Shown here piece by piece: positions 33,481 to 34,634 of a DNA stretch of 34,634 nt. The DNA lies in the IMG/VR virus record IMGVR_UViG_2541047873_000007. The stretch is one strand, 5' to 3'. Made by a program: the position numbers and the translations under genes. This stretch comes from a virus. Lineage: Duplodnaviria; Heunggongvirae; Uroviricota; Caudoviricetes. The notes below the pieces were generated by a model. It worked only from the letters and a program-made list of their open reading frames with translations. It did not search any database and was not told the DNA's origin. Each line of letters starts with the position of its first letter. The first letter of the stretch is position 1.

Positions 33481-33530
33481 CTCTTCCCATTTTGACCCAG
33501 TTCTTCCCATAAATATCTCACTTATTCCCT
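33481..33530. repeat. Three 10-bp direct repeats (CTCTTCCCAT, TTCTTCCCAT, CTTATTCCCT) at 20-bp spacing near the prophage end
   Basis: Repeats start at 33481, 33501 and 33521, last one about 23 bp from the proposed terminus; candidate transposase-binding sites. Confidence 0.4.
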
Positions 33531-33553
33531 GTCATTTATCTCAAGTCTAATCA

Positions 33554-34634
33554 CCCAGACCGGCCAGGTGTGCGGCATAAACAGTACTTCCGCGTCGTTA
33601 CCCCACATATCCAGCGTTTCGTTCAGGTACTCGGTCCACTTGCTGGTATCGCGGGTTTTCGCGCCGCGCAGAGTGTAGAAGTTGTGCAGGGTATGCGTGG
33701 CGTTCTCGGCGGTACACAGGGCTTTCAGGGCCGGAATATAGAAGTGCATTTCGGCTGGCGCTTCGCTACCCGGAGTCATCAGGAAGTCAAACTCCAGGCC
33801 GTCGATAATCATCTTCTCGCCAGTTCTGACGATAGTTTTAGTCGGTGCAATAATGCTCGGGTCGCCGGTTGCCAGCGTCACGCCCAGGCCATTACCCACG
33901 TTGCCTTGCGCGTTGTGCGGCAGTAACAGACCGTAAGAGTAGAGCGCACGGCGGCTCATAATATTACCCGCCAGCACGTTTTCGCTGATGGCTTCGTCCA
34001 TAAAGCCTGCCGGAGCGATCACCTGCACTTTGCCGGATTTAACATCCGCTTCAGAGATAATGCCTTTCACACCGCCATAATGGTCGGCGTGGCTGTGGGT
34101 GTAAATAACAGCAACAATCGGTTTTTGCGGACGATGTTGGAAGTAAAGGTCAAGTGCGGCTTTTGCGGCAGGCGGCGTCACCAGTGGGTCGATAACAATA
34201 ATGCCTTTCTCGCCCTCAACGAATGTAATGTTAGAGATATCCTGGCCGCGCACCTGATACATTTTATCGGTGACTTTGAACAGGCCAGAAATGCCGTTGA
34301 TCTGCGACTGACGCCACAGGCTGGGGTTTACGGTTTCCGGCGCAGCGGCATTAATATCAAATTTGTAATCATTCGCGCGGTAGTAAACTTTGCCGTTAGC
34401 ATCACGCAGAATACCTTCATCCAGCAGCGGGGCGATAAATCCACGCTGGGCATCGTCAAAATCTTGACGATCGCTAAACGGTAATGATTTGGCGTAATTC
34501 TGATTAATCTGTTGGGTATATTGAGTGGCGGCTTTCGCTTCATCTGTTGCGTAAGCGGTATTTACCATCATGCCGCTGGCGGCAGTTAACGCAATAACAA
34601 TCCTGCTCAAACGGAATAACCGAGAGTTATTCAT
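33554..34634 (-). pseudogene. yjcS: Host MBL-fold alkyl/aryl-sulfatase gene (YjcS/SdsA1-like), 5' portion only
   Basis: Signal peptide [29 protein letters not shown] and metal site [11 protein letters not shown]; frame ends after ...HTWPVW with 10 codons of prophage-end sequence, far short of a full-length enzyme. Confidence 0.7.

Follow-up and report, generated by a model that had tools for sequence, protein, structure and literature searches.

The Mor-side end of a B3/BcepMu-type transposable prophage in the Escherichia coli yjcS gene: terminal units probably read by the transposase and a candidate packaging signal

The viral DNA considered here (IMG/VR record IMGVR_UViG_2541047873_000007, whose whole 34,634-nucleotide stretch is referred to as the window) consists, from position 1 to position 33553, of most of a 37.6-kb transposable, Mu-like prophage of the B3/BcepMu type, followed by the interrupted 5' part of the alkyl sulfatase gene yjcS of Escherichia coli. 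Position 33553 is the early, Mor-side end of the prophage, which is the "left" end in the nomenclature of BcepMu and B3. Coordinates of the individual features are collected in Table 1. The gene order begins with minus-strand tail, head and lysis genes, passes through a regulatory island of low guanine-plus-cytosine (GC) content, and continues on the plus strand with genes for helix-turn-helix (HTH) proteins, DUF3102, TnpA, TnpB, Gam, GemA and Mor up to the end. The early operon is thus inverted and ends GemA-Mor, a layout as in BcepMu and B3, with 162 bp between the mor stop codon and the tip of the element.

TnpA is 68% identical to the TnpA of BcepMu and 56% identical to that of B3 over 98-100% of its length. 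Neither TnpA nor TnpB has a match in the Mu genome (tblastn, E<=0.01), the MuA-type domains HTH_Tnp_Mu and Mu-transpos_C are not in TnpA, where Pfam finds rve alone, and a phmmer search against the PDB gives marginal matches to retroviral-integrase cores only (E>=0.007). Homologues of other products are present in Mu, i.e. Gam (62%), TerL (matching gp28; Table 1), MuF (48%), portal, GemA and Mor, and the two Mu regions matched by mor fall inside Mup17 (Mor) and Mup21 (C) as annotated. The BcepMu transposase has been described as closely related to that of Tn552 in the paper on phage KS10 (PMC2628397), and B3 TnpA as related to it (PMC8705779). A search for the Tn552 link by tblastn on plasmids yielded, among the matches listed, only IS481-type rve transposases at ~26% identity. 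The element shows every feature of the B3/BcepMu group that could be tested, the 6-bp duplication being seen in its sister copies, and it departs from Mu proper in its transposase domains, in the duplication of those sisters (6 bp where Mu has 5), in its end sites and in its gene order.

The junction of prophage and host DNA lies at 33553/33554. A minus-strand open reading frame (33522..34634) reads ...FMPHTWPVW and then runs through 10 foreign codons to a stop. When 33300-34634 is searched by megablast, yjcS is found in more than 5300 of 5426 complete E. coli genomes, with all alignments beginning at query base 255, i.e. at window position 33554. An intact 661-aa yjcS allele (L104) agrees with 33554-34634 at 1081 of 1081 positions and past the junction reads ...HTWPVWGNKHINDY, where the window turns to unrelated sequence exactly at 33553/33554; the gene of 661 codons is interrupted after coding nucleotide 1081. 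At other loci, four of four sister prophages likewise finish ...TCTAATCA and are followed by unrelated host DNA. Because the intact allele diverges at this point and the four sister prophages share the endpoint, the junction and its terminal CA are exact. The initial annotation had read the same frame as a sulfatase up to ...HTWPVW with 10 further codons before a stop, and had placed here a prophage terminus ending in CA; the frame, the position and the dinucleotide, which the four sister copies have in common as a TG...CA-type tip, are all confirmed. No intact allele continues through 33531-33560, and the formation of the terminus by transposition into an alkyl sulfatase gene, now named as yjcS, is supported.

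Both the element and its end are already known from near-identical copies in public genomes and from a deposited phage. The 654 bases that end at 33553 with ...TCTAATCA are found at 706 places in 641 of the 5426 genomes, beside varied flanking genes (lplA, yehY, dmsC, yehR, cbtA and others), and are 99.8% identical to Escherichia phage PhiKM, classified in GenBank as a Bcepmuvirus. Over its full length, window 1-33553 is 99.6-99.7% identical to L001, L005 and L007, three of the four sister prophages that were fetched, and all of these stop at the same base. The full element in L001 is 37,566 bp long with boundaries TGATGCG...TAATCA. Its last 4.0 kb, missing from the window, contain the tail fibre genes, an invertible segment and the gene for a Gin-like recombinase, and end at the other tip. 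The insertion into yjcS is absent from the 5426 genomes, where the best megablast matches span the yjcS part only, and yjcS appears to be an insertion site unrecorded among complete E. coli genomes.

One of the 706 matches to the phage end is on a plasmid, and E. coli plasmid CP088398.1 (377 kb) carries at 356532-358298 a TnpA gene 98.6% identical to that of the window, possibly from the same copy; the element may therefore also enter large plasmids. "Klebsiella phage KP12 clone KP12_2" (OM835952.1) is filed under Vequintavirinae, and the stretch examined, the last 2.4 kb to the record end, matches the BcepMu-type element of the window, with GemA and Mor at 90% nucleotide identity and the sequence ending ~46 nt before the Mor-side tip; this stretch is probably a co-induced or contaminating prophage and not part of a Vequintavirinae phage. 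The PhiKM record (PQ738613.1) is a permuted, partial assembly with the tail-side end missing: at 3655-3990, ~330 bp that carry the annotation of a host Fe2+ ABC transporter permease separate the Mor-side tip from a tail fibre gene. In the record of phiE255 (NC_009237.1) both tips are internal, the tail-side one at 212 and the Mor-side one at 680 with 467 bp between them, and these tip positions reproduce the 467 bp of host DNA said to be included in the deposited sequence (PMC2920897). At the tail-side end, which is outside the window, sister copies carry tail-fibre and assembly genes by the Gin-like recombinase (L001 1419-3031, L005 2677-4289, L006 36668-38308, L007 2690-4260), and the orientation of this segment differs among the copies, which fits an invertible host-range switch of the Mu G-segment type.

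In all four sister insertions the element has the form 5'-TGATGCGCCGCGCGATAAATG...TCTCAAGTCTAATCA-3' and abuts 6-bp direct repeats (TCAATG, GCAGGG, CGATGG and CTTGCT). The tips are TG...CA: the sisters begin TGATGCG and finish TAATCA, and the CA of the window copy is at 33552-33553. The inverted end and flanking duplication that the initial annotation expected at the other prophage end are found in the sister copies (four seen, three of them checked along their length as above), which show matching inverted terminal repeats together with the duplication. Its likening of the end to those of Mu stands for the TG...CA tip and for transposition and does not stand for the enzyme, since the transposase is not MuA-like and is instead of the rve-only, Tn552-related B3/BcepMu type, with a duplication of 6 bp and not 5. 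Duplications of 6 bp and TG-CA ends are reported for B3, and are described as the footprint of a B3/Tn552-family transposase (PMC8705779; PMC2628397). An origin through a site-specific integrase and an att site was considered and is excluded by the many insertion sites and the 6-bp duplications.

The duplication flanking the yjcS copy is predicted, but not seen, to be CCCAGA, since the window does not reach the far end of this insertion. The second junction should be found ~4.1 kb upstream of window position 1, where the 3' fragment of yjcS, ...TTATTGCCCCAGA, would be followed by TGATGCGCCGCGCGATAAATG, so that the fragment would end CCCAGA beside 5'-TGATGCGCC. Entry into yjcS was by DDE transposition, with the Tn552-related, rve-only TnpA acting together with its AAA+ partner TnpB; in this chemistry the 3'-CA tips are joined to staggered cuts 6 bp apart. 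The insertion truncates YjcS at residue 360 and should have left CCCAGA on both sides.

The Mor-side end, read inward from its tip, was compared with the opposite, tail-side end of the E. coli element, with the two ends each of BcepMu and B3, and with the Mor-side ends of 80 loci. These loci were found through the transposase, one genome per species, and their ends were located downstream of mor and anchored by an nhmmer profile of the first 46 nt; the 50 distinct Mor-side ends were reduced to 31 representatives less than 80% identical to one another. From the tip inward the consensus of the 31 is TGa...Gg.gTGAGATAAat......g.....gcGaGATAA.t..GGga......Ggga......gGga......Ggga..g....TG.AAa....TT.Ca.....tgaAA. 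It begins with two units that share a GAGATAAAT core, at positions 9-22 and 32-45 from the tip (window 33532-33545 and 33509-33522). A weight matrix made from unit 1 finds that unit in 31 of 31 ends and unit 2 in 21 of 31, and it finds no further site of this type within 400 nt in either orientation, by which a third transposase-type site further inside is ruled out. The same two units stand at six tail-side ends, i.e. those of the E. coli element, BcepMu, phiE255, B3, PM105 and phiSHP3; the ends profile did not find a tail-side end in the last ~600 bases fetched of the JBD25 and Lsp-JY19 records. Each end of Tn552 carries a pair of 23-bp transposase sites in direct repeat, which the two ~23-bp units match. 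We infer that TnpA recognises two directly repeated ~23-bp GAGATAAAT units, inverted between the ends. Repeats of 23 bp have been described at each end of BcepMu and phiE255 (PMC2920897), and the literature on the family as a whole records TG-CA ends, a Tn552-related transposase, 23-bp end repeats and a left-end pac (PMC8705779, PMC2628397, PMC2920897).

A second pattern is interleaved with these units. The initial annotation had described three direct repeats at exactly 20-bp spacing just inside the tip and regarded them as consistent with transposase-binding sites. The repeats are real: there are exactly two copies of TCTTCCCAT, one at 33482-33490 and the other 20 bp away at 33502-33510; the third, TATTCCCTG at 33523-33531, is degenerate, agrees at 6 of 9 positions and stands 21 bp from the second copy, and the consensus given for the three, CTYWTTCCC, literally fits this third copy alone. 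Read on the minus strand the three are GGGAATAAG, ATGGGAAGAAC and ATGGGAAGAGAC, with GGGA beginning at positions 25, 46 and 66. Because a fourth phased copy (CCCA/GGGT, 33495-98) sits between the first two repeats, the true period is ~10 bp. The corresponding 24-nt phased pattern, GGGA-N6-GGGW-N6-GGGA, occurs once in the window, at this place, and in none of 100 shuffles.

The phasing is kept by the relatives. Of the 31 representative ends, 28 have a GGGA that begins at positions 44-47, 11 have one at 54-56, 16 at 64-67 and 19 at 74-77, and successive copies are most often 10 bp (19 times) or 20 bp (14 times) apart. The first 120 nt of these ends contain 105 GGGA versus 2 TCCC, and positions 44-100 contain 84 GGGA versus 18.7 +/- 3.8 in shuffles of matched composition, none of the 2000 having more than 31. 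GGG(A) positions are retained while the bases between the motifs vary freely, and the partial Klebsiella record KP12 has the same array pattern. The repeats first noticed are lineage-specific extended copies of the array motif; with their 20-bp spacing they are thus the stronger members of an array whose period is 10 bp and which is conserved in elements of both beta- and gamma-proteobacteria. Across the six tail-side ends there is one GGGA in total, in BcepMu at position 46, so that by this comparison the array is essentially specific to the Mor-side end. Because it is one-ended and unlike the shared transposase units, the array is not accepted as a set of transposase-binding sites; what the two ends have in common is the pair of ~23-bp GAGATAAAT units. 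The initial annotation was accurate in what it observed and correct in reading a prophage end; the function assigned to its repeats was probably mistaken.

Inward of the array is a conserved subterminal block (Table 1) that is often an inverted pair TGYAA/TTRCA and looks like a site for a dimeric protein. Mu has CTTGCAAGCC..GTGCAA after its own array, in the equivalent place (81-100). A canonical terminator or promoter was considered for the block and rejected: no terminator was found, and the lone weak promoter-like match is not conserved in the relatives. Close behind the mor stop codon there is an imperfect inverted repeat at 33399-33443, which a simple terminator scan does not call a canonical terminator.

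The explanation that best accounts for the locus as a whole, and in which we place high confidence, is that of a B3/BcepMu-type prophage end in yjcS with two probable transposase units and a separate, one-ended GGGA array. As to the function of the array, which begins directly inside site 2, the most likely proposal, at about even odds, is a pac signal at which a Mu-type terminase, gp27-like plus gp28-like, would start headful packaging. The main alternative would be an architectural or accessory element by which the left-end transpososome becomes asymmetric. The two phage groups have terminase subunits in common but transposases without detectable similarity, and the packaging signal is the simplest interpretation. 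Mu packages from its left end, where its pac was reportedly mapped to approximately nt 32-58. That end, ...CCGGGAGGACATTGGATTATTCGGGATCTGATGGGATTAG...GGGGCTTGCAAGCCTGTAGTGCAA, has GGGA at 33, 53 and 63 and GGAT at 43; next comes a block that resembles TG.AAa..TT.Ca. A family profile of positions 43-122 has its best match in the whole Mu genome, both strands considered, at 44-93 in the correct orientation; a profile of the two transposase units (the terminal 46 nt) finds nothing at the Mu ends, and its best match, at another place in that genome, has an E of 3. A pac at the left end has been stated for BcepMu and phiE255 (PMC2920897), and the left end is the Mor side in the BcepMu record. A broader form of the proposal is offered tentatively and with somewhat less than even confidence: the array would be a pac read by a gp27-type small terminase, placed beside site 2 and followed by the TGYAA..TTRCA block, and conserved from Mu to the B3/BcepMu lineage in beta- and gamma-proteobacteria despite the exchange of transposase and end sites.

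A number of points count against the packaging proposal. The match of the family profile to Mu is weak (E=0.13), and GGGA-N6-GGGA is not enriched in Mu when taken alone (3 versus 1.0 expected). The left ends of the MuA-type phages SuMu, 3927AP2, RcapMu and D3112 have no GGGA array, and because four such phages are without it the link to Mu-type terminases as a universal one is weakened. The rigidly fixed distance of the array from site 2, together with the BcepMu tail-side GGGA at the same position 46, would fit a role in the transpososome too. Finally, no description of the family-wide GGGA array or of its resemblance to the Mu left end was found in the literature searched, and the primary BcepMu and B3 papers may cover the array or assign it a function.

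Another possibility, which we regard as unlikely, is that the repeats are extra transposase-binding sites and that the Mor-side end is the richer in sites, as with L1-L3 of Mu or the multiple TnsB sites of Tn7. Related transposons often have asymmetric ends, and the repeats, all in the 75 bp nearest the tip, show helical phasing and keep their distance from site 2 in 28 of 31 relatives; BcepMu moreover has its single tail-side GGGA at the same position, 46. However, the conserved core is merely GGGA at a 10-bp period, unlike the ~23-bp GAGATAAAT units of both ends, five of the six tail-side ends have no GGGA, and a similar array is found in Mu although its transposase has no detectable similarity. 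Two 23-bp sites are what a Tn552 end contains. Further, it is the Tn552 transposase to which that of BcepMu is described as close (PMC2628397), and the paper on phiE255 mentions only the 23-bp repeats at each end (PMC2920897).

The strict 10-bp period on one helical face, and the A-rich spacers of the E. coli copy, would also be expected of an architectural element, in which phased G-tracts and A-rich spacers bend the DNA or form a site for a HU- or IHF-like host factor and so shape the left-end transpososome or mark the polarity of the ends, with neither transposase nor terminase binding it sequence-specifically. The spacer between L1 and L2 of Mu is bound by HU in the transpososome. Such a role is nevertheless unlikely, to about the same degree as extra transposase sites: the family has no further transposase site in the first 400 nt that a bend could draw in, and the conservation of one particular tetranucleotide, strongly biased to one strand (105 to 2), favors sequence-specific recognition over DNA shape alone.

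We assign a distinctly low probability to a rearranged form of the packaging proposal, in which the pac is the conserved palindromic block at 33436-33466 and the GGGA array has some other left-end function. The block is about as conserved as the array and likewise end-specific, and Mu has a similar one in CTTGCAAGCC..GTGCAA; the coordinates reported for Mu pac, however, span the GGGA motifs and not the block at 81-100. That the repeats arose by chance in AT-rich terminal DNA, for which it could be said that the typed consensus has 1 match versus 1.13 expected in the window, has a probability close to nil, being refuted by the shuffles of the 24-nt pattern and by the conservation of position in 31 relatives less than 80% identical.

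The insertion is itself routine: the gene inactivated is a non-essential one for a sulfatase, and the transposable prophage is a known one, of which hundreds of E. coli genomes have near-identical copies. The exact boundaries of the element (TGATGCG...TAATCA, 37,566 bp, 6-bp duplication) should aid the annotation of prophages because RefSeq marks the split host genes merely as pseudogenes. The probable end-recognition repeats are now told apart from a second, one-ended signal, and this gives the B3/BcepMu family a testable packaging-signal candidate that resembles the left end of Mu. If the GGGA array is indeed pac, packaging and transposition specificity would be separable modules within the same 100 bp, and the so far uncharacterised pac of a prophage family in ~12% of complete E. 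coli genomes would be defined; the construction of mini-element vectors would benefit, as would the prediction of which prophage remnants are still packageable and able to transduce flanking host DNA.

Table 1. Features of the prophage and of its junction with yjcS, in window coordinates
Feature	Coordinates	Strand	Basis
Large terminase	17815..19356	-	49% identity to Mu gp28, E=1e-139
Mu gp27-family protein, 181 aa, putative small terminase/pac-recognition subunit	19407..19952	-	PF11985, E=1e-56, the family of Mu gp27
TnpA, DDE transposase, 589 aa, rve core	26603..28372	+	Pfam rve only (E=1e-8); no Mu match
TnpB, AAA+ target-DNA ATPase (ExeA family)	28383..29549	+	AAA_22, E=4e-20; ExeA annotation in sister copies
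gemA (gp16 family)	32581..33030	+	Annotation; Mu match
mor (Mor/C-family late activator), last gene before the end	33002..33391	+	tblastn, 30-32% identity to Mu 8856-9167 and 10038-10373
16-nt imperfect inverted repeat (AATCAGGCTGGCGCGA / TCGGGCCGGTCTGATT) around a T8 run, possibly the early-transcript end	33399..33443	.	Start lies 8 bp beyond the stop codon of mor
Conserved subterminal block TG.AAa-N4-TT.Ca...tgaAA, here GCAATAACCTTACAGTATGTGAA	33436..33466	-	Conserved columns, positions 87-112 in 31 relatives
Phased G-tract array (GGGA 33505-08, GGGT 33495-98, GGGA 33485-88, AGGA 33474-77), proposed pac or architectural element	33474..33508	-	Conservation in 31 relatives; shuffles
Unit 2, core AGTGAGATATTTAT (33509-33522), probable transposase site 2	33508..33530	-	Weight matrix at position 31-32 in 21/31; tail-side ends too
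Chimeric tail of the truncated yjcS reading frame: 2 bases of the junction codon, 9 phage-encoded codons and a stop	33522..33553	-	Reading-frame translation; allele alignment
Outlying GGGA, between the two site cores and within the span of unit 2	33526-29	-	Array motif
Terminal unit 1, ~23 bp, tip 5'-TG and core CTTGAGATAAATGA (33532-33545), probable transposase site 1	33531..33553	-	Core equally far from the tip in 31/31 Mor-side and 6 tail-side ends
yjcS 5' part (alkyl sulfatase), codons 1-360 and one base	33554..34634	-	1081/1081 versus the intact allele; Lactamase_B domain; yjcS annotated under the match in >5300 genomes
CCCAGA, predicted right-hand copy of the 6-bp target-site duplication	33554..33559	.	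6-bp duplications in 4 sisters; B3 (PMC8705779)

Two other parts of the prophage show features of their own. The late and early arms are separated by the low-GC island (22958-25074, GC 0.40-0.47 versus ~0.55-0.60 elsewhere), which encodes a 153-aa HTH_31/HTH_3 protein, the likely repressor. Two proteins without a Pfam or PADLOC match, of 328 aa and 196 aa, are apparently encoded in one operon with it. Adjacent is a 158-aa P-loop fragment annotated as "ABC transporter ATPase"; this may be cargo or an exclusion function. The tape-measure gene (5222-8434) has internal direct repeats at 5823-6636 with offsets of ~261 and 522 bp and 92-96% identity. Because RefSeq has this gene split or pseudogenised in two sister copies (L001 and L006), the repeat may promote length variation or assembly errors.

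Among known systems the nearest are BcepMu and phiE255 (Bcepmuvirus), PhiKM and the E. coli prophages, all with the same gene order of tail, head and lysis genes, divergent regulators, and TnpA-TnpB-Gam-GemA-Mor to the end. BcepMu and phiE255 have a TnpA 68-69% identical to that of the element, the same TG...CA tips, two ~23-bp repeats per end and the Mor-side GGGA array, and the element differs from the matching E. coli prophages in its insertion site; by the tail-side end the cargo is a Gin-like invertase in the E. coli element and an acyltransferase in BcepMu. B3 (Beetrevirus), with the more distant TnpA (56%), has the inverted early operon, which puts Mor beside its left end; its two end sites are the same, and it has GGGA at 29, 44, 54 and 75. 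It is, however, described as a siphovirus of Pseudomonas (PMC5977238), whereas the window element has contractile-tail genes of the P2/Mu type, including sheath and tube.

Tn552 of Staphylococcus aureus is a 6.5-kb resistance transposon and not a phage; it makes a 6-7-bp duplication, and it is not known to have a pac or GGGA array. Its relation to the element rests on the literature cited above. Mu (Muvirus) resembles the element in being transposable with TG...CA tips, in its homologous Gam, GemA, Mor, TerL, gp27-family, portal and MuF proteins, and in a left-end phased GGGA array followed by a TTGCAA-type block. It is unlike the element in that MuA and MuB have no detectable similarity to TnpA and TnpB, its end-binding sites are unrelated, its duplication is 5 bp versus the 6 bp of the four sister copies, and it has Mor in mid-genome and the repressor by the left end. 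The element behaves like Mu yet belongs to a Tn552-related lineage.

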